Positions 56,462-64,000 of a stretch of 64,000 nt of DNA are shown in pieces. The translations under genes were made by a program, and so were the position numbers. This DNA is from Candidatus Aminicenantes bacterium JdFR-78 (GTDB taxonomy: Bacteria > Acidobacteriota > Aminicenantia > JdFR-78): NCBI GenBank assembly GCA_002010665.1, contig MTON01000027.1:22780-86779 (forward strand). The letters are read 5' to 3'. A model generated the notes under the pieces. It saw only the letters and a list, made by a program, of their open reading frames with translations, was not told the origin of the DNA and did no database searches. Numbering within the stretch: position 1 is the stretch's first letter; every line of letters begins with the position of its first letter.

Positions 56462-57601
56462 TTAATATTTTATCTCATTCCAGTTTTCAATTTTTAATCT
56501 TTTAATCATTATATTTCCTGTTTCCTTGGAGCGAAGAAGAGAATAGATATAACCTCGCTTGATTACATGCGGATAGCAAGGTAACTTCGTATAATACAAG
56601 AACTTCCCTTTTGAACTGAAAATATCTATGTCCCATTCCTCTCTCTTATCAGATGGTGACTTAAATTTAATTACCCATATTCTTCCTTTCTCGTCAGTAA
56701 GTATATCAGTAAAAAATGGACAGTATTCAGGAATATACATCCTCTTTAATTTTTTGGCTTTCCTTGGAACAGGAATCGGATTTTCATCTTTTTTTATTTC
56801 AAAAATTAAATTACCTTCTTTATCAAGAACAAATAATCTATATTCATCTGACTTTGCATATATAATTTTATTTTCAAATGAAGCGAGAACTAATCTTAGA
56901 GCATATGGGCTCAAAACTCCTCCAAAAACTCCTCCACCTCCTTTGCCTTTTATTTTTATATTTCTCTCAATTAATTTATCTATTTCTTTTATCAGTTTGC
57001 CTTTAAAATCCAGCATAACAAGACAGTTGTATGCTCCGCTTTCCTCAAATTGAAGAACTGGAATAAAAATTCTCTGCTCAGATGTAATTACAAAGCGAAG
57101 ACCTAAATAAGGAGGGATTGAAAAATCAAAAGTCGAATAATCACAGGGAATTCTCTCTACAAAATCTCCATTTTTATTAAACTTCTCAATCTCTCTTCCA
57201 TCTTTAACATATATGTTATCTTCAGTGTCAATAAATATAGAAACTGGAAATTCAAACTCACCAGGTCCTTTCCCTCTTCTTCCAATTGTTTTAAGGTATT
57301 TTCCATTTTTATTAAATACTTGAACTCTACAATTTCCCCTATCAACTATATAGATGTTTCTCCTGCTATCAACCCCAATATCTGAAACCCGATAAAACAT
57401 ATAATTCTCATCTATTTCTGATTCCTTGATTGTTAAGTCTTCCTTTAATTTAAGTTTTAATTCACTACATTCAGGGTTAATCTCAGAACTACATATTTCT
57501 ATAAAAGCAAAAAACATAAAATAAAGAAGACATAACAAATAACCCTTTTTATTTTGTGTTCTCATCTGATAATTTTTTATAAAATAATTTTCGAATTTCA
57601 A
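56462..57601 (-). CDS. Secreted NHL-type beta-propeller protein (paralog family A, copy 1)
   Basis: Signal peptide. First blade is a canonical NHL repeat 'GRRGKGPGEFEFPVSIFIDTEDNIYVKD'. Paralogous to 57912-58999, 60322-61446 and 63693->64000. Confidence 0.55.
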   Translation of the reverse strand: MKFENYFIKNYQMRTQNKKGYLLCLLYFMFFAFIEICSSEINPECSELKLKLKEDLTIKESEIDENYMFYRVSDIGVDSRRNIYIVDRGNCRVQVFNKNGKYLKTIGRRGKGPGEFEFPVSIFIDTEDNIYVKDGREIEKFNKNGDFVERIPCDYSTFDFSIPPYLGLRFVITSEQRIFIPVLQFEESGAYNCLVMLDFKGKLIKEIDKLIERNIKIKGKGGGGVFGGVLSPYALRLVLASFENKIIYAKSDEYRLFVLDKEGNLIFEIKKDENPIPVPRKAKKLKRMYIPEYCPFFTDILTDEKGRIWVIKFKSPSDKREEWDIDIFSSKGKFLYYTKLPCYPHVIKRGYIYSLLRSKETGNIMIKRLKIENWNEIKY

Positions 57602-57602
57602 G

Positions 57603-57908
57603 CTATGTTTTAGTGTAGGGGCAGCATCTACTATAAGAAGCTACTGGCTCGTTATTAATAATGCACTGGCATAAAACGCATTCTCTTGAACCGCCATCAA
57701 TTCCACAAAAAACGTCCTCGCAATAACCAAATGTCTCACAAAAAATAATAAGAAATCCTTCTCTGCTTCGTTCGCAAATAAGGGAGGCTCGGCAGTGTTT
57801 TCTTTCTGCCGCATGAACAAATTTTACCACCATAAGTATTGCTAAAATTAGTGCTATCCCAATGCTTAAACCAATTAAAAGATGTTTGTTTTTTGATAAA
57901 CTTTTCAT
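57603..57908 (-). CDS. Small Cys-rich protein with N-terminal signal/anchor (101-aa class)
   Basis: N-terminal hydrophobic helix then 11 Cys in about 65 aa. SD 'AAGGGGA' 6 nt upstream. Stop lies 1 nt from the start of the downstream beta-propeller gene. Confidence 0.5.
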   Translation of the reverse strand: MKSLSKNKHLLIGLSIGIALILAILMVVKFVHAAERKHCRASLICERSREGFLIIFCETFGYCEDVFCGIDGGSRECVLCQCIINNEPVASYSRCCPYTKT

Positions 57909-57911
57909 TTT

Positions 57912-58999
57912 AATCCCCTTTTAAAGTTTTGGAATTTTAAACTTTATAAATTTTAATTCATATTTATCCTTTAAATGTCCATATTCAAGAACATATTTCC
58001 TATTTTTTCTATCTAAAGCAAAACCCCGGAGAATAAAAGGAACATTTTTTATAAATAATTTAATAAATTTATTTTTATAATTTCCATTTAAATCAAAAAT
58101 ATATACTTTTCTCCTTATTCCACATAATAAATTATTTTCTATAACTTCTATTCCAAAAATGTATCTAATAGCATATATTCCATCCTCACTTATTACATTC
58201 TGAGGGGTTTCAAATGGAAGTTTTGATTCTTTTATAAATTTATCAATTTCTAATACACCCCTGACTTTTAATTTTCTTAAGTTTCTAAAAAAGACTAACT
58301 CACCTTTTGAAGTATATTTATATATTTAAATATAACTGGATAAAAAACGAACGCACCGTATATATTGTCTTTGTTATCTATTATTAATTTTGCTTTATTA
58401 AAAAAACAATATGCTTCTATATCTTTTGTAGGAATTATTTTTCCAAAGGTCTTTGTTAGTTTACCGTTTTCATTAAAACCAGAAATCAATTTTTTATTCA
58501 AGAATTTGCTTTTATTTTTACTATCAAGAAAAATCATTTTTTTAGAACCAACTACAATTGAACTCACCCCATATAATTCCTCTTGAATGGAAATTTTCTT
58601 TTTAAATTTTCCGCTTAAATCATATACTTTAATACTGTTATCACCATTTATTATGTAAATTAATCCTTTTTTAATAAAAAAGGCTTGAGGCTTATAAAGT
58701 GATTGCTCATCTTGACCTATCTGTCCAATTTGTCCAATTATTTTACCTTTCTCATTTAACTTTAAAATTCTGTGATTCTCTCTATCCAAGGCATAGATAA
58801 TACCGTCATTGTAAGCAAAAAGTGTTTGCGTCAAATAAAAATTAAGATTCATTTTATCAAAATCTTCTGTCTCTGTGTCAAAAAGCACCTTTGCATTAAC
58901 TTTGATTTCTTTCTCAAAGGCTGGAGAGGAGATTAAAAGGTGGAACGATATTATTAAAAGATAAAATAGAATTAAAAGTAATTTAAATATTCTCTTCAT
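57912..58999 (-). pseudogene. Frameshifted paralog of the NHL beta-propeller family
   Basis: ORF 58295-58999 (234 aa) stops at about two-thirds of paralog length. The remaining C-terminal third ('...DGIYAIRYIFGIEVIENNLLCGIRRKVYIFDLNGN...') continues in a different frame to a TAA at 57921-57923 with no ATG. Shift lies near an A6 run at about 58285-58291. Confidence 0.5.
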
Positions 59000-59849
59000 T
59001 TACTCTTCATAAGCAATTTTAGTATCGCATTAAATATATACTCTTCGCTCATTCCAATTTTCTCAACGAAAATTATTTTTTTATTTTTTATTAATACGGT
59101 AAAAGGATCATTCTTTAAAAAATCATCAGTAATATATTTTTGCTCATCTGGTAATAAATTGAAATTGGGGCATTAAATATATCTCAAAAGGTATTTTTAT
59201 ATATCCTTTAATTTCCTTTACATCATTACTGTTAAATGGATCAAGAAAAGTAATCAACACCCTGCTTTTAATCTTTTCTTTTTTCAATCTGTCCCGTAGC
59301 TTAATCAAGGTATTAATTCTTTTCCCTGTCTTGCACAAGCTGCAAAAAGATGAAAAAATAGTTAAAATTATATTATCTCCTCTTGAAATATTTCTTAGGT
59401 AAATTTTTTTTTCTTCCTCACATCGTAAAGAATTAAATCAGGAACTTCTTTCCCTTTAATAAATATCGTCTGCTCAGACGGTTTTTTAAATATATAATTA
59501 ATTTTCCCAAGGATACTCTTTTCCACCAATTGCCTCATCTCTTCTTCACTGATTAAACTTTTTGAATAAAATTCAATTTTCCATTTTTAAAATCTTTGTC
59601 TTTATATCGCTTAAATAATACTTCTGCATAAACTAATTTGAATTTGTCAGATATGTATAGGGGGTCAAAAAATAGAATAAAAAGATTTTTCACTTTTTCT
59701 TCACATAAAACAAATAAGTTTCCATTAATATCCTCAGCGTAAAAGTCCGGAGCTCTGTCTCCATAAGAAAATGCTTTTTTCTCCACTCCCACCAAGAAAG
59801 ACCAGAGGAAAATTGTTAAAATCATTGCTGAAATCAGCAATGCACTCAA
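58996..59849 (-). pseudogene. Disrupted TlpA-like thioredoxin-fold gene (at least two frameshifts)
   Basis: Three frames each match successive parts of the intact copy 61931-62497: N-terminal anchor plus 'APDFYAEDINGN' (frame of 59553-59849), CxxC 'FCSLCKTG...' (frame of 59144-59338), C-terminus '...KIGMSEEYIFNAILKLL' (to 58996). T9 homopolymer at 59404-59412. Confidence 0.45.
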
Positions 59850-59877
59850 TACGTTTATTGACTTCTTAAATCTCGTT

Positions 59878-60300
59878 ATCCCTTTGCACTAAAAAATTTA
59901 TTTATCAAATATCATAAAGTCAATTAATTTTATTCGTAAATTTTCCGATTTGATATCTTGCTCTATATTCGGAAGGAGTGACACCTTCCATTTCTTTAAA
60001 ATCTTTATAGAAATTCTGAACGAATTTATATCCAACTCTATATGAAATCTCTTTTATACTCAATGAATCACCTTCTAAAAGCTTCTTTGCTTTTTCAATT
60101 TTCCTTCGCTTTAAATAAGCTTTAAAAGTCATTCCAATTTCTTTTTTAAAAAGCTCGCATAAACGAGAACGACCAAGACAACAGTATTTTGTAATAGTTT
60201 TTAGACTTATCTTTTTATCTAAATTCTTTTCTATAAACTTAAGAGCTTTTTTGACTCTTAAATCCATTTTTCATAAAATTTAGGACTAAAAAGAGGAAAA
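59878..60300. repeat. About 420-bp segmental repeat (copy 2) carrying the AraC gene and its flanks
   Basis: Near-identical at nucleotide level to 62484-62950, including the 'CCCTTTGCACTAAAAAATTTATTTATCAAA' 3' flank and 'ACTAAAAAGAGG..AAACTT' 5' flank. Confidence 0.7.
59920..60267 (-). CDS. MarA/SoxS-sized AraC-family HTH regulator (copy 2)
   Basis: 115 aa consisting only of the dual-HTH AraC DNA-binding domain. Nearly identical to 62532-62897. Confidence 0.75.
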   Translation of the reverse strand: MDLRVKKALKFIEKNLDKKISLKTITKYCCLGRSRLCELFKKEIGMTFKAYLKRRKIEKAKKLLEGDSLSIKEISYRVGYKFVQNFYKDFKEMEGVTPSEYRARYQIGKFTNKIN

Positions 60301-60321: not shown

Positions 60322-61446
60322 TTAATCTTTAATTTTTAAAGAATATACTGCAAAACTTGGAGTTACTTCATCAATGCAAAATGTATAAATATTATTATTT
60401 TCATCAATATCCATTATCGTTTCTGGGCCAAATTTTATATCCTTCTTTATTAAAGTCCCATCTAAAGAAAAAATGTCCAGATAATTTCTCGTCTTTTTAA
60501 TTCCCTTTTCTCTATAAGTCTCGGATAATTGAACTACTACATGGTTTTCTTTTGTAAAATGAACTCCTGCAATTACAATTAATTTTTCAATAGAATCCAT
60601 GATTCTCTGAATTTCTGCAACACTTTTAATTTTTTTTACGCTTAATTCGACTAGTTTTTTAGGAAATTTATAACCTGGGATTTTTCTTCCAAATTTTCTT
60701 ATCACTTGTCCATTTGTATTCAGAATATAAATTATATAAGGATTCGAGGGTTCAAAATGTGCAAATGCAATTAGATTATTTTTAACATCTATACTCCCCA
60801 TATAAGGCGTATGCAAACTATCCTTTCTTGGTTTTGGCCTATCCGGGAGAACTTCCTCAAAAAATGATTTAATGTATTTTCCAGTTCTATCATAAACATG
60901 AATATGATATTTTGACATAAGTTGTGGAGGGAAATAATAAATTACAATATTTCCATTTATGTCAAAATCCATACTTCGAGGATATTTCCAAGGCATGAGT
61001 TTTATAGATTTAATAAAATTCAAAGAATTATCAAAAATGCTTATTCTTCTGTTTCTAATTTCAGCTACCCAGATATTTCCTTTCTCATCAATTGCAAAAT
61101 GAGAAGGAGAATCAAGCTCTCCAGGTCCTTGTCCTTTTCCTCCTGCTTCTTTTATAAATTTTCCATCCTTTGAGAATTTCTTAATTGTATGTCCTTTAAA
61201 ATCAAGAACAAAGATATTACCATCTCTATCAGCTTTAATATCAGTTATCAGGAAAAAAAGCTCTTCTTTCTTTTCTTCACTTCCGATTTTGAATTTTTTT
61301 TCAATAATTACTTCTTTACCTAAAATTCCATTTGTTATAATAATTAAGCTTAGAAAAACCACAAAGATCTTCCTCATTCTTTCTCTCATTTTTTCATCCC
61401 CTGTTTGATATTTATCTATAATTACTATTGAGCTATCTCTATGCAT
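60322..61446 (-). CDS. Secreted NHL-type beta-propeller protein (paralog family A, copy 3)
   Basis: NHL blade 'GGKGQGPGELDSPSHFAIDEKGNIWVAE'. Probable true start at the internal 'MRERMRKIFVVFLSLIIITNG' signal peptide (about 61389). Confidence 0.6.
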   Translation of the reverse strand: MHRDSSIVIIDKYQTGDEKMRERMRKIFVVFLSLIIITNGILGKEVIIEKKFKIGSEEKKEELFFLITDIKADRDGNIFVLDFKGHTIKKFSKDGKFIKEAGGKGQGPGELDSPSHFAIDEKGNIWVAEIRNRRISIFDNSLNFIKSIKLMPWKYPRSMDFDINGNIVIYYFPPQLMSKYHIHVYDRTGKYIKSFFEEVLPDRPKPRKDSLHTPYMGSIDVKNNLIAFAHFEPSNPYIIYILNTNGQVIRKFGRKIPGYKFPKKLVELSVKKIKSVAEIQRIMDSIEKLIVIAGVHFTKENHVVVQLSETYREKGIKKTRNYLDIFSLDGTLIKKDIKFGPETIMDIDENNNIYTFCIDEVTPSFAVYSLKIKD

Positions 61447-61646
61447 TTTTCGTAAGAAATTCTACATCCTGTTGTGCATTCATGAAATAAACCAAAAGGA
61501 ATATAGGCAACACACATTAAAACGCAAGCCTCATATAAATCCTCGCATTCTTCTTCTGTTATTGCTAAAACCGGTTTTTGTTTAGTAAGAAATAAGTTTA
61601 AAATTAAAATGAAGGAAATAATAATAATCAATAATTTTTTTACCAT
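61425..61646 (-). CDS. Small secreted Cys-rich peptide precursor (73-aa class, copy b)
   Basis: Signal peptide with 'PVLA|IT' cleavage-like site. Mature about 45 aa with C-x6-C-x3-C ... C-x3-C-x6-C spacing. Confidence 0.5.
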   Translation of the reverse strand: MVKKLLIIIISFILILNLFLTKQKPVLAITEEECEDLYEACVLMCVAYIPFGLFHECTTGCRISYEKCIEIAQ

Positions 61647-61686: not shown

Positions 61687-61908
61687 TTACTCCTCAGCCA
61701 TACTCATGCAAAGTTCAAAGAAAATTCTACATCCTTCTTGACATCCATAATTCGAACCACAACTTTCTTGACATGCAGAAAAAATTTCAAGGCAATCTTT
61801 TTCTGTTACTTTTGCAATCATTGATTTTTGAAAAATAGTTAAGAAACCAAAAACAAGGAACATTAAAAGAGCACTCGTTAATAAGAATACTTGAATTTTT
61901 TTAGACAT
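61687..61908 (-). CDS. Small secreted Cys-rich peptide precursor (73-aa class, copy a)
   Basis: Signal peptide 'SMIA|KV'. Same mirrored six-Cys spacing (CLEIFSAC QESC ... CQEGC RIFFELC). Confidence 0.5.
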   Translation of the reverse strand: MSKKIQVFLLTSALLMFLVFGFLTIFQKSMIAKVTEKDCLEIFSACQESCGSNYGCQEGCRIFFELCMSMAEE

Positions 61909-61930: not shown

Positions 61931-62497
61931 TTAAAAAATTAATTCTCTTAATTCATAATAATCACTCCCATCTAATTCACCTGTTTTTATCCATTCAACT
62001 TTGCCTTTCCCATTAATTAAAATAGTCTGAGAAAATTTCGAAATTCTGTAATCTCGAATAAATTTTTCTCTATTTTTAGGAGTATAAACTGGAATGTCCA
62101 CTTTTAAATATGATTTTAAATTTCGTGCATCTTTCAGTTCCCTTAAACTGATTAATAGTACCCTTGCCTTATCTTTAAGTTGGTAACTTAACCTTCTCCA
62201 AAATATTAAATTTTTATCACAAGGAATACATGAATTTGTTTGAATGAAAAGCAATGTTTTCTTATTATTATTGAAATCAATAAATTCTATTTTGCCATCT
62301 AAATTAACTGCTTCTATAGGAGGTGCATAATCGTCTGGGATTAGATGAGGAATTTCTTTTCTTAATGCTATTATATGAGCTTTAAGCCTTCTATTTTGAA
62401 TTATTAATATCACTATTTCTAGTAAAATCAACAAAATTAATATTCCTATTAAAAAATTAACTAATTTTTTATATTTCATTGTATTATCCCTTTGCAC
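61931..62497 (-). CDS. Membrane-anchored TlpA/ResA-like thiol:disulfide oxidoreductase (thioredoxin fold, CxxC)
   Basis: N-terminal TM, 'APPIEAVNLDGK' start of the thioredoxin domain, active site 'SCIPCDKN'. Likely start is the ATG at 62479 (SD 'AAAGGGA') rather than the GTG at 62497. Confidence 0.7.
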   Translation of the reverse strand: MQRDNTMKYKKLVNFLIGILILLILLEIVILIIQNRRLKAHIIALRKEIPHLIPDDYAPPIEAVNLDGKIEFIDFNNNKKTLLFIQTNSCIPCDKNLIFWRRLSYQLKDKARVLLISLRELKDARNLKSYLKVDIPVYTPKNREKFIRDYRISKFSQTILINGKGKVEWIKTGELDGSDYYELRELIF

Positions 62498-62950
62498 TAA
62501 AAAATTTATTTATCAAAAATCCTAAAGTCAACTAATTTTTATTCGTAAAATTTCCGATTTTGTTAGTAAATTTTCCGATTTGATATCTTGCTCTGTATTT
62601 GGAAGGAGTGACACCTTCCATTTCTTTAAAATCTTTATAGAAATTCTGAACGAATTTATATCCAACTCTATATGAAATCTCTTTTATGCTCAGTGAATCG
62701 TCTTTTAAAAGCTTCTTTGCTTTTTCAATTTTCCTGCGCTTTAAATAAGCTTTAAAAGTCATTCCAATTTCTTTTTTAAAAAGCTCGCATAAACGAGAAC
62801 GACCAAGACAACAGTATTTTGCAATAATTTTTAGACTTATCTTTTTATCTAAATTCTTCTCTATGAACTTAAGAGCTTTTTTGACTCTTAAATCCATTTT
62901 TCATAAATTTCCCTTTCCATTAATTTAGTACTAAAAAGAGGGAGAAACTT
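62484..62950. repeat. About 470-bp segmental repeat (copy 1) carrying the AraC gene and its flanks
   Basis: See copy 2. Contains an internal 21-nt tandem duplication ('GTAAAATTTCCGATTTTGTTA'). Confidence 0.7.
62532..62897 (-). CDS. MarA/SoxS-sized AraC-family HTH regulator (copy 1)
   Basis: 121 aa AraC dual-HTH domain. C-terminus carries a 21-nt tandem duplication relative to copy 2 ('IGKFTNKIGNFTNKN' vs 'IGKFTNKIN'). Confidence 0.75.
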   Translation of the reverse strand: MDLRVKKALKFIEKNLDKKISLKIIAKYCCLGRSRLCELFKKEIGMTFKAYLKRRKIEKAKKLLKDDSLSIKEISYRVGYKFVQNFYKDFKEMEGVTPSKYRARYQIGKFTNKIGNFTNKN

Positions 62951-63390
62951 GAAAATTTTTGAAATTTTTATAAGTTAAGTAAAGCCAATAAGTTAAATAG
63001 ATAGTTTTCTATCCACGAATCAAAAGATTTTTTTTATATTTTGAGGAAATCATAAAAAAATTCGATAAAAAAAATGACAAATTTCTCATTAATATGAAAA
63101 GATGTTTAAATAGTAGAAAGATGCTTTCTTTAAGTTAAACTGTTCGGAATAACAATTTGTCCAAAAATTTTGTGAAAGAAAAGATAGACAGGCTACTTTT
63201 TATTACCTCTCTTTTTAGTCTCTCCTCTATTTTTATCATTTCGAATCAGATTCTATATGAATTTTTATAATTATGACGATCGGTAAAGTAACCTATTCTT
63301 TTTTATTTACCATCTCATTCCTTTCTAATTTAAACTTGTTTCCCCCTACCGATTTCTTTTTACCCAGAATATTATATCTTAGGAATCAAA

Positions 63391-63696
63391 TTAACGACAG
63401 CAAGTTCTGCGATATTCGTCACAATACCAATAAAACCATTCCCAAGGCCCTGTACATTCTATTAACCATTCAGAACGACAAATGCAATAACCATCACACC
63501 AGGCTTCCTCTAATGTGTAGTTTTTACAATTTCTTTTTCCTCCACAATCTTCAACACAATGTTCACGAGCAAGACTTTTACATAATATTGTGGGTGTGCA
63601 AGATTTTGGTTCATCTGCAAATAGATATTTAATCAAAATTAAATCAAAACATAAAATTAAACCTAAAATAATTAAAAGAAGAAGATTTTTCTTCAT
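63391..63696 (-). CDS. Small Cys-rich protein with N-terminal signal/anchor (101-aa class)
   Basis: Hydrophobic N-terminus then 12-13 Cys in about 70 aa. ATG overlaps the TGA of the upstream beta-propeller gene (ATGA). Confidence 0.5.
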   Translation of the reverse strand: MKKNLLLLIILGLILCFDLILIKYLFADEPKSCTPTILCKSLAREHCVEDCGGKRNCKNYTLEEAWCDGYCICRSEWLIECTGPWEWFYWYCDEYRRTCCR

Positions 63697-64000
63697 TTTT
63701 GACTCCTTAAATTAAATTTTTTAAAAATCTTATTTTGGTCAACTTGTTGCTTTTTCTTTTTATAGATTATTATTTTTGTATTACTTAAAACTGCGTAGAT
63801 ATTTTTAATGTTATTAATACAATAAATTCCATCAGTAGTATTAGGAACTTCTATACAAGAAACAAAACTTCCATTTTTTCTAAATATATATATTTCTTCT
63901 TTTTTGATAGAACTATTAAAATAAAAAAGATATAAATTTTCGTTATTATCCGATAAAAATTCATGAAATGCTACCCTATATCTCCCTTTGGATAATGATT
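63693..64000 (-). CDS. C-terminal part of a fourth NHL beta-propeller paralog (5' end beyond window)
   Basis: Open frame from the window edge to TGA at 63693-63695. '...YIFRKNGSFVSCIEVPNTTDGIYCINNIKNIYAVLSNTKIIIYKKK' resembles the C-termini of the other paralogs. Confidence 0.4.
   Translation of the reverse strand, partial: SLSKGRYRVAFHEFLSDNNENLYLFYFNSSIKKEEIYIFRKNGSFVSCIEVPNTTDGIYCINNIKNIYAVLSNTKIIIYKKKKQQVDQNKIFKKFNLRSQK

Follow-up and report, generated by a model that had tools for sequence, protein, structure and literature searches.

An exported cysteine-rich protein encoded behind a beta-propeller gene in Candidatus Aminicenantes, a candidate client of a thioredoxin-like/propeller pair

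A 64,000-nucleotide stretch of the genome of Candidatus Aminicenantes bacterium JdFR-78 (contig MTON01000027.1, positions 22,780 to 86,779), which is called the window in the following, carries on its minus strand at 63391-63696 a small gene for a cysteine-rich (Cys-rich) protein of 101 amino acids. This protein, here named A, is predicted to be exported via Sec and to form an acidic mini-protein of approximately 74 residues with six disulfides, of which five would be formed by family-invariant cysteine pairs and one by an extra pair. Gene A is the third gene of an operon that is conserved in Aminicenantes-like bacteria and encodes a membrane-anchored thioredoxin-like (Trx-like) protein with two domains, only the second of which has a CxxC motif, then a periplasmic beta-propeller, and then one or two Cys-rich proteins. 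As export or anchor signals are present on all three proteins, as their genes are translationally coupled, and as an oxidoreductase is the neighbour, we propose that A is an exported client or partner of the Trx-like/propeller pair, a reading to which we give about an even chance. After export, the Trx-like protein would introduce or reshuffle the disulfides of the Cys-rich protein, with the propeller acting as a binding platform for this client. The product would be a very stable extracytoplasmic mini-protein, which may remain on the propeller. We infer the disulfide formation by the neighbouring Trx-like protein, the binding to the propeller and the final role of A from gene order, whereas the reality of the gene, export by a signal peptide, the conserved cysteine scaffold, the paired gain of cysteines and the conserved gene order with its overlaps are directly supported.

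Gene A is an open reading frame (ORF) of 101 codons with 13 cysteines, one inside the signal peptide and 12 behind it. On the minus strand, its ATG (63696-63694) overlaps with the TGA of the upstream frame (63695-63693) to give ATGA, and a Shine-Dalgarno motif AAGGAG, as read from the sequence, is located at 63703-63708 (minus strand), 6 nt before the ATG of A and within the end of the propeller gene. A protein identical to A is encoded on 13 public contigs. Considering the Shine-Dalgarno site, the overlap, these 13 contigs and the relatives described below, A is a genuine, selected gene; the alternative of a spurious ORF was rejected on the basis of the Shine-Dalgarno site, the overlap and the conserved relatives. 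This agrees with an earlier interpretation of the window made from its letters only (the sequence-only reading), which had reported a Cys-rich ORF with ATGA overlap at 63391-63696, and its coordinates, cysteine count and overlap were all borne out. It had also dismissed a 119-codon ORF on the plus strand, which is antisense to gene A, and rightly so: this reading frame is not conserved among twelve members of the A family, in which the antisense stop-free runs comprise only 41-83 codons.

The N-terminal part of A, approximately residues 1-26 (MKKNLLLLIILGLILCFDLILIKYLF, encoded at 63619-63696, minus strand), is a predicted Sec signal peptide. It begins with an MKK n-region that is followed by a hydrophobic core, AlphaFold places a helix at residues 2-25, and all family members possess an equivalent N-terminus. 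The cleavage probably occurs after ..LFA. The remaining mature, disulfide-rich domain of about 74 residues is encoded at 63394-63618 (minus strand) and contains the ten family-invariant cysteines together with one extra pair, C71 and C100.

The window includes only the end of the upstream propeller gene. The frame is open from 63998 at the window edge down to the TGA, and the C-terminal 101 codons (63693-64000, minus strand) of a six-bladed NHL/DUF5128 beta-propeller of the A-type subfamily are thus covered; this fragment has no Pfam match of its own. To obtain the remainder, six A-carrying contigs (L001-L006) from single-cell and metagenome assemblies of Candidatus Aminicenantes were fetched, which reach about 2.3 kb past the window edge. 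With 0-6 mismatches to the window across the shared sequence (up to 10.6 kb), these six assemblies are, by sequence, of the same population. The full upstream ORF has 361-363 codons in the extended contigs (363 in L001, positions 1232-2323) and matches PF17170 (DUF5128, "6-bladed beta-propeller") and NHL; the L001 protein (1232-2320) reaches 32.8 bits with PF17170 and 29.2 bits with NHL, for which the cut-offs are 22.9 and 20, respectively. The extension thereby recovers the full upstream propeller that had been looked for, and the upstream frame, which might have turned out to be unrelated to the propellers, is indeed a propeller paralog. Also the broader view of the sequence-only reading holds, namely that a genuine Cys-rich protein is translationally coupled to a beta-propeller paralog as part of a repeated cassette. 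The A-type propeller is only 26-28 % identical to the other propellers of the window. These paralogs also match PF17170 above the gathering score, although all these matches are partial and cover at best positions 46-271 of the 321 profile positions. The DUF5128 family has no assigned function and is not mentioned in the searched literature. The nearest solved relatives are the NHL propellers of TRIM71, Thin and Brat, and more distant PDB matches are the lyase domain of peptidylglycine amidating monooxygenase and SOQ1.

Two further observations concern this propeller and its surroundings. The A-type propellers have an invariant cysteine within D[IL]CCDDEGNLYVAD in blade 1 (about 1400-1420 in L001, alignment A6), which is part of a vicinal CC in 7/8 sequences and is not found in the window paralogs at 60322-61446 and 56462-57601. 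It could be a redox-active or partner-contacting site. Just 5' of the cassette, outside of the window, L001 contains a GC-rich hairpin at positions 1-40 (CCTGGTAGAGG ... CCTCCACCAGG). Five of the six assemblies stop within about 150 nt of it, and the sixth, L004, about 790 nt farther inside. This points to a repeated element at which the assembly breaks.

The gene order around A recurs in other genomes. A genome search with the full-length propeller resulted in nine loci, and a metagenome search with an alignment of propeller orthologues added 27 more; an alignment of the four divergent window propellers had too few conserved stretches to be of use for this purpose. Of the loci with a high-scoring orthologous propeller, 21 were evaluable, and 19 of these have a Cys-rich ORF (at least 8 cysteines) whose start lies -38 to +25 nt from the stop of the propeller gene. 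Evaluable here means a distinct locus with enough downstream sequence, and the coordinates are those of the longest ORFs; for some loci an internal ATG is the more probable start, with which the range becomes narrower. The ORFs behind the propellers comprise 98-129 codons (again as longest ORFs) and encode 10-15 cysteines in total and a signal-like N-terminus. Two Cys-rich genes in a row are present in L008, L017 and L018, and two propeller/Cys-rich pairs in L013. The Cys-rich ORFs behind the propellers of L022 and L026 match neither the A family nor the family of protein B that is described below, so the slot behind the propeller, as far as these sequences tell, evidently accepts different Cys-rich proteins. 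On the 3' side of the Cys-rich gene, five loci have a TIGR03436 gene, which encodes an acidobacterial protein with a von Willebrand factor A (VWA) domain (L008 1945-3111, L009 5305-6498, L010 1240-2433, L012 7559-8449 and L013 3062-4642; L009 and L010 are near-identical in this region). In the window, this position is occupied by the next cassette. The three-gene module is not mentioned in the literature that was searched on DUF5128, NVEALA and combinations of propeller, Cys-rich, thioredoxin and bacteriocin.

The most constant partner of the propeller is the Trx-like gene, which the sequence-only reading had not mentioned. It lies directly 5' of the A-type propeller gene and encodes about 345 residues, with a membrane anchor, a thioredoxin-like domain that lacks CxxC, and a second domain that contains this motif, in the orthologues as CFGC, CFSC, CMGC, CFDC, CSGC or CSIC and in the window population as CLGC. 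It runs into the start of the propeller gene, with an overlap of 4 nt, in L001, L009, L011, L018, L019, L023, L024, L026, L027, L028 and L039. The protein matches AhpC-TSA and ResA weakly, the best being ResA with E = 0.0012. As the pairing with the propeller is kept in L027, which has no Cys-rich gene, and in L028, where too little downstream sequence is available, the Trx-like protein and the propeller can be regarded as the core of the module, with the Cys-rich genes as frequent additions. With TlpA, ResA and CcmG, which are membrane-anchored periplasmic thiol-disulfide oxidoreductases with dedicated substrates, the Trx-like proteins of the cassettes have in common the N-terminal membrane anchor and the weak AhpC-TSA/Redoxin matches with ResA models as the best ones. 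However, none of the scores comes near the cut-off of its family, two Trx-like domains are present in the A-type version, of which one carries CxxC, and no cytochrome or copper-protein substrate genes are found nearby.

Relatives of A itself are few. A word-indexed protein search with A returned A only, and the same search with the family profile gave no loci beyond those already known. An exhaustive HMMER search with the mature part of A against 1.84 billion representatives found five real relatives (P0005, P0006, P0007, P0008 and P0010) with 32-53 % identity. Together with the relatives encoded beside propeller orthologues, the identities span 29-53 %. About 17 distinct mature domains of the A type can be aligned (alignment A7), as had been proposed for metagenomic homologs, and they have ten invariant cysteine columns that correspond to C33, C39, C47, C51, C57, C67, C73, C81, C92 and C99 in A. 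Behind the signal peptide the family follows the pattern C-x5-C-x7-C-x3-C-x(5-8)-C-x(9-12)-C-x(5-10)-C-x7-C-x(9-17)-C-x(5-8)-C, which A fits, and the hidden Markov model (HMM) of the family scores A at E = 4e-21 with A itself in the training set; P0005, P0006, P0008 and P0010 are independent HMMER matches. Outside of the cysteine positions the 17 sequences are 17-55 % identical. The mature domains are acidic, with a median net charge of -6 and an isoelectric point of 4.4, and they contain about 15 % cysteine and about 15 % aromatic residues. No match of A was found in Pfam (E <= 1), NCBIfam, PADLOC or the PDB, and nine cassette proteins gave 0 matches to the PADLOC models for anti-phage defence. 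As 1.84 billion cluster representatives and 5.8 billion clusters at 90 % identity yielded no more than a handful of members, the A family is by these searches unannotated, rare and lineage-restricted, and A is its first recognized member. Four contigs of three metagenome-assembled genomes labelled "uncultured Clostridia" (L012, L013, L014 and L016) carry the same module with gene content and neighbours that resemble those of the Aminicenantes loci. This label possibly stems from an artefact of binning or taxonomy; alternatively, the distribution of the module may be wider.

The cysteines that exceed the ten invariant ones recur as column pairs: columns 59 and 70 in five sequences, 70 and 95 in two, and 61/62 and 105 in two, namely A and its closest orthologue. 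The cysteine count of the mature domain is even in 16 of the 17 aligned members and odd in one. From this paired gain and the even counts it is expected that every cysteine is engaged in a disulfide, which speaks against a metal-binding role. The family members would need five to seven disulfides. An AlphaFold2 model of A from an 11-sequence alignment, with four of five models above 90 in the predicted local distance difference test (pLDDT) and a value of 92.7, shows the signal helix, a helix at 37-50 and strands at 57-69, 72-81 and 88-95, and thus one helix on a three-stranded sheet. A Foldseek search of this model against the PDB gave no match with E < 0.1, and the predicted fold appears to be new. 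These results bear on the alternative that A binds metals or clusters, in the manner of a metallothionein or with Fe-S or Zn, and is no disulfide protein. The high cysteine content and the acidic character of the mature domains would suit it, as would the origin from anoxic subsurface and hydrothermal sites, where periplasmic disulfides are not self-evident, and the loci were not seen to contain an oxidase gene (DsbB, VKOR, MauE). However, a gain of cysteines in fixed pairs is the signature of disulfide partners, the cysteine spacing fits a helix/sheet fold that is predicted confidently without ligands, and a thiol-disulfide oxidoreductase gene is the constant neighbour. We therefore think that metal binding is very improbable.

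The window has a second Cys-rich gene in the slot behind a propeller. Protein B (57603-57908, minus strand), with 101 residues and ten cysteines, is encoded in another cassette directly behind the propeller gene 57921-58999. The sequence-only reading had placed A and B in one "101-aa class" and regarded them as two copies of a fast-evolving peptide family. Both proteins are indeed of equal length and follow a propeller gene directly, a loose cysteine framework can be written for both, and their similar signal peptides are each followed by a mature part that opens with C-x5-C. BLASTP confirms this common N-terminal anchor and first C-x5-C, as it aligns residues 2-40 only, which are the signal peptide and this first motif, with E = 3e-5 for a single comparison. 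A relationship of the mature domains is not supported. An A-family HMM built without B-type sequences gives B an E-value of 3.5 among 1032 ORFs, and a hhalign comparison of the A and B family profiles (A7 versus A8) resulted in a probability of 5.8 %. For B, AlphaFold predicts an all-beta structure at lower confidence (pLDDT 80, based on three sequences), whereas A has a helix and three strands; the two models differ in the first half, where a helix in A stands against a beta-hairpin in B. In addition, the B type possesses a motif of its own, CE[TV]FG[YI]C, which A lacks and which is found in distant members from other metagenomes (L039, 54-3590; L036, 3355-3531), and it has its own gene order of Trx-like, propeller, B-type and propeller genes, which is the same in L039 and in the third cassette of the window. 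That A and B belong to one family is accordingly unlikely. By its sequence, B is a real conserved gene of a separate family, and A and B have a genomic slot and an export signal in common without demonstrable common ancestry. The relatives of B are 76-83 % identical, with a signal peptide that is at least as changed as the mature part, and the ratio of nonsynonymous to synonymous substitution rates (dN/dS) between B and its L007 orthologue is 0.23, which indicates purifying selection. The earlier term "fast-evolving" thus describes the highly variable positions between the cysteines of the A family well, but it applies neither to the ten invariant cysteines nor to B.

The variability outside of the cysteines is one of several features that could point to an antimicrobial. 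According to this alternative, A would be a Sec-secreted, defensin-like bacteriocin or toxin, the propeller would confer immunity or act as a chaperone, and the divergent tandem cassettes would result from an arms race. A is small, exported and disulfide-rich, and multiple divergent cassettes are present in the genome, in which one and the same slot is taken by several unrelated families of Cys-rich "cargo". Cysteine-stabilised alpha/beta peptides such as cis-defensins and scorpion toxins have one helix on a three-stranded antiparallel sheet, as in the model of A, and A in addition contains CxxxC, located in the predicted helix, and CxC, located in a strand. In alpha/beta defensins, which are cationic and about 35-50 residues long, the CxxxC of the helix is paired with the CxC of the strand. 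The A domain differs from these peptides, as it is about twice as long and would form 5-7 disulfides, CxC is not conserved in its family, and none of the acidic mature domains is cationic. Neither a recurrent match in sequence nor a significant one in fold supports the relationship. Among 15 family members compared with Pfam at E <= 10 there is no recurrent family, defensin and toxin families included, and Toxin_5 (E 0.03) and Nodulin_late (E 0.02) are weak matches of one member each. When PDB sequences were searched with the family profile, the sole match, to a thaumatin-like protein (E = 1.9), was at chance level. The loci lack a transporter, a peptidase or an obvious immunity gene, and the purifying selection on B is a further point against this alternative. 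A cationic defensin was rejected for the acidic domain, the unconserved CxC and the missing family and fold matches, and we consider the antimicrobial interpretation as a whole to be improbable.

A further comparison is possible with enzymes that consist of a propeller and a small subunit. In the light chain of methylamine dehydrogenase (MADH), two tryptophans form tryptophan tryptophylquinone (TTQ), which is matured by MauG. The six disulfides of MADH depend on MauD, a protein with a Trx fold (bioRxiv 10.64898/2026.03.05.709764). The mau proteins MauB (heavy subunit), MauA (light subunit) and MauD and the module described here both combine a periplasmic propeller, a small protein with about six disulfides and a dedicated, membrane-associated Trx-fold protein with CxxC from a neighbouring gene. 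It could therefore be argued that A is the small subunit of a two-subunit propeller enzyme, either of MADH type or like the gamma subunit of quinohemoprotein amine dehydrogenase. The tight translational coupling of the propeller, the small disulfide-rich protein and the Trx-fold maturation gene, two mostly aromatic columns that flank conserved cysteines, and a nearby AraC-type regulator, as in the case of QhpR, would be in line with this. However, MauB has seven blades, and the propeller here is of the six-bladed NHL/DUF5128 type without an invariant histidine or other obvious catalytic residues (alignment A6). No invariant tryptophan is available for a quinone, as column 57 is W/Y/V and column 73 is W/F/Y. 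A has no match to the light-chain family Me-amine-dh_L or to MauA among Pfam families at E <= 1, none of these recurs in the 15 members at E <= 10, and no match to light-chain, heavy-chain or MauD models was reported. Also MauE, MauG, radical-SAM and cytochrome genes are missing from all loci, as is a gene for a haem protein or another maturation factor from any examined locus, and the copy number of the Cys-rich gene per propeller varies from 0 to 2. A small subunit with TTQ or cysteine tryptophylquinone (CTQ) was rejected for the lack of an invariant tryptophan, of maturation genes and of a model match, and the propeller-enzyme alternative is, in our view, highly unlikely.

Another comparison is with proteins in which the two core partners are fused. 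Human NHLRC2 and plant SOQ1, which also have bacterial homologues, combine a TlpA/DsbE-like thioredoxin with a six-bladed NHL propeller, and their redox motif lies in the cleft between the domains, which has been proposed as a partner site (PMC6107167; bioRxiv 10.1101/2021.03.16.435614). In the module described here a Trx-like protein and an NHL propeller are encoded by separate genes that overlap by 4 nt. For the bacterial NHLRC2 homologues that were examined in the cited study, no conserved neighbouring genes were found (PMC6107167), whereas here candidate clients are encoded next door. There are clear differences: the Trx-like protein has an extra domain without CxxC, and its motif is in the second Trx-like domain and reads CFGC, CFSC, CLGC or similar, not CCINC or CC(I/V)NC. 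We regard the resemblance to NHLRC2/SOQ1, and likewise that to MADH, as a possible functional analogy only.

Several points weigh against a client role of A. The link among the three proteins is drawn from gene order, and the propeller and the Trx-like protein are not close to NHLRC2 or SOQ1, since SOQ1 is found with the propeller at E = 0.0035 and NHLRC2 is not listed at all, while ResA is the best Trx-like match, as given above. The evaluable loci L021 and L027 have no Cys-rich gene behind the propeller, and the same is true for L037, which has a frameshifted propeller and is outside the 21. As the number of Cys-rich genes per propeller ranges from 0 to 2, a strict 1:1 complex is unlikely. 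In the window population, the Trx-like gene of the first cassette (L001 205-1235) is split by a frameshift in all six assemblies. The frameshift is at an A5 run near 856-861, just before CLGC, and leaves a 224-codon ORF and a second frame, whereas the orthologues elsewhere are intact. This split could mean a pseudogene, a mutation throughout the population or a site of recoding, and either a different oxidoreductase may fold A, or the cassette may be in decay. Lastly, oxidising power would be required in source habitats that are anoxic.

Behind gene A, an AT-rich non-coding spacer of 493 bp (62898-63390) separates the end of the first cassette from the AraC-type gene of the second one. Its GC content is 24.9 %, compared with 31.8 % for the whole window. 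A tblastn comparison with every ORF of 43 related loci did not reveal a convincing remnant of a coding sequence; besides the antisense ORF itself, all matches were short and weak (E >= 0.001), and neither a decayed second Cys-rich gene nor a decayed VWA gene was found in this way. The spacer has no Rfam match at E <= 1, which altogether confirms the non-coding gap that had been reported at this position. It would presumably hold a terminator and a promoter, although promoter and terminator scans did not exceed the shuffled expectation.

The other cassettes of the window follow the same logic, which is in favour of the client role, as each unites a Trx-like gene with a propeller and with further Cys-rich proteins that have signal peptides. 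The second cassette (62897-60322) consists of genes for an AraC-type protein, a TlpA-like protein, two proteins of 73 residues and a propeller. The AraC-family protein (62532-62897, minus strand; PF12833/PF00165) has 121 residues, which is the size of MarA/SoxS, and comprises the DNA-binding domain only, as does its counterpart of 115 residues in the third cassette. The two genes are 96 % identical over 300 nt (62557-62856 versus 59927-60226), and 56 nt of adjoining sequence (59876-59931 versus 62484-62539) are 95 % identical, at a spacing of about 2630 nt. From the sequence, this pair is the result of a recent duplication or of gene conversion between cassettes that are otherwise highly divergent in their genes. 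The TlpA/ResA-like thiol-disulfide oxidoreductase (61931-62497, minus strand) is membrane-anchored, has the motif CIPC, and shows a weak AhpC-TSA/Redoxin match below the Pfam gathering score as well as a match to the NCBIfam ResA model. The two 73-residue proteins (61687-61908 and 61425-61646, both minus strand), which are encoded between the TlpA-like gene and the propeller gene, have signal peptides and a symmetric arrangement of six cysteines, C-x6-C-x3-C-x5/11-C-x3-C-x6-C, suggestive of a helical hairpin that is stapled by disulfides. They have no family match and are a third, unrelated type of Cys-rich "cargo". The longest ORF of the propeller of this cassette starts at 61446 and overlaps the second 73-residue gene by 22 nt; some gene callers start later.

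The third cassette (60267-56462) contains the AraC duplicate, Trx-like fragments, a frameshifted propeller, protein B and another propeller, and it looks partly decayed. The Trx-like fragments (59144-59849, minus strand) are a 98-codon ORF and then a 64-codon ORF, which is preceded by CSLC in the same frame. The propeller gene 5' of B (57921-58999, minus strand) is frameshifted near 58295-58305 into a 234-codon ORF and a remainder of 122 codons in another frame, and the latter is 88 % identical to the intact 319-residue orthologue of L007.

If A is a client or partner as proposed, the module would be a dedicated periplasmic thiol-disulfide oxidoreductase with its client, which is not a new principle. 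A wider proposal, which is possible yet doubtful, is that the operon represents a split prokaryotic Trx-like/NHL-propeller redox module with clients encoded in cis, namely A-type proteins and, in the other cassettes, B-type and the 73-residue proteins, which would be the substrates or ligands handled by the cleft between Trx-like protein and propeller, and that the A family has an undescribed disulfide-rich fold. If the client role is wrong, what is left is a hypothetical protein that is restricted to one lineage and has conserved neighbours, and this would be of use for annotation only. We know of no cultured representatives of the Aminicenantes, and the samples come from hot or anoxic subsurface, sediment or hydrothermal habitats, in which structural disulfides are not taken for granted. 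If the proposed role is true, these bacteria would possess a so far unannotated family of exported mini-proteins that are hyper-disulfide-bonded, along with a machinery for making or holding them, and a compact, probably very stable scaffold would be added to the small set of bacterial disulfide-rich mini-proteins. It would also provide a concrete pairing of oxidoreductase, propeller and client, while the client of the fused Trx-NHL proteins of eukaryotes is still unidentified. NHLRC2 is essential and linked to disease, and a split module would offer a simple bacterial system for asking what NHLRC2 and SOQ1 do to their partners.

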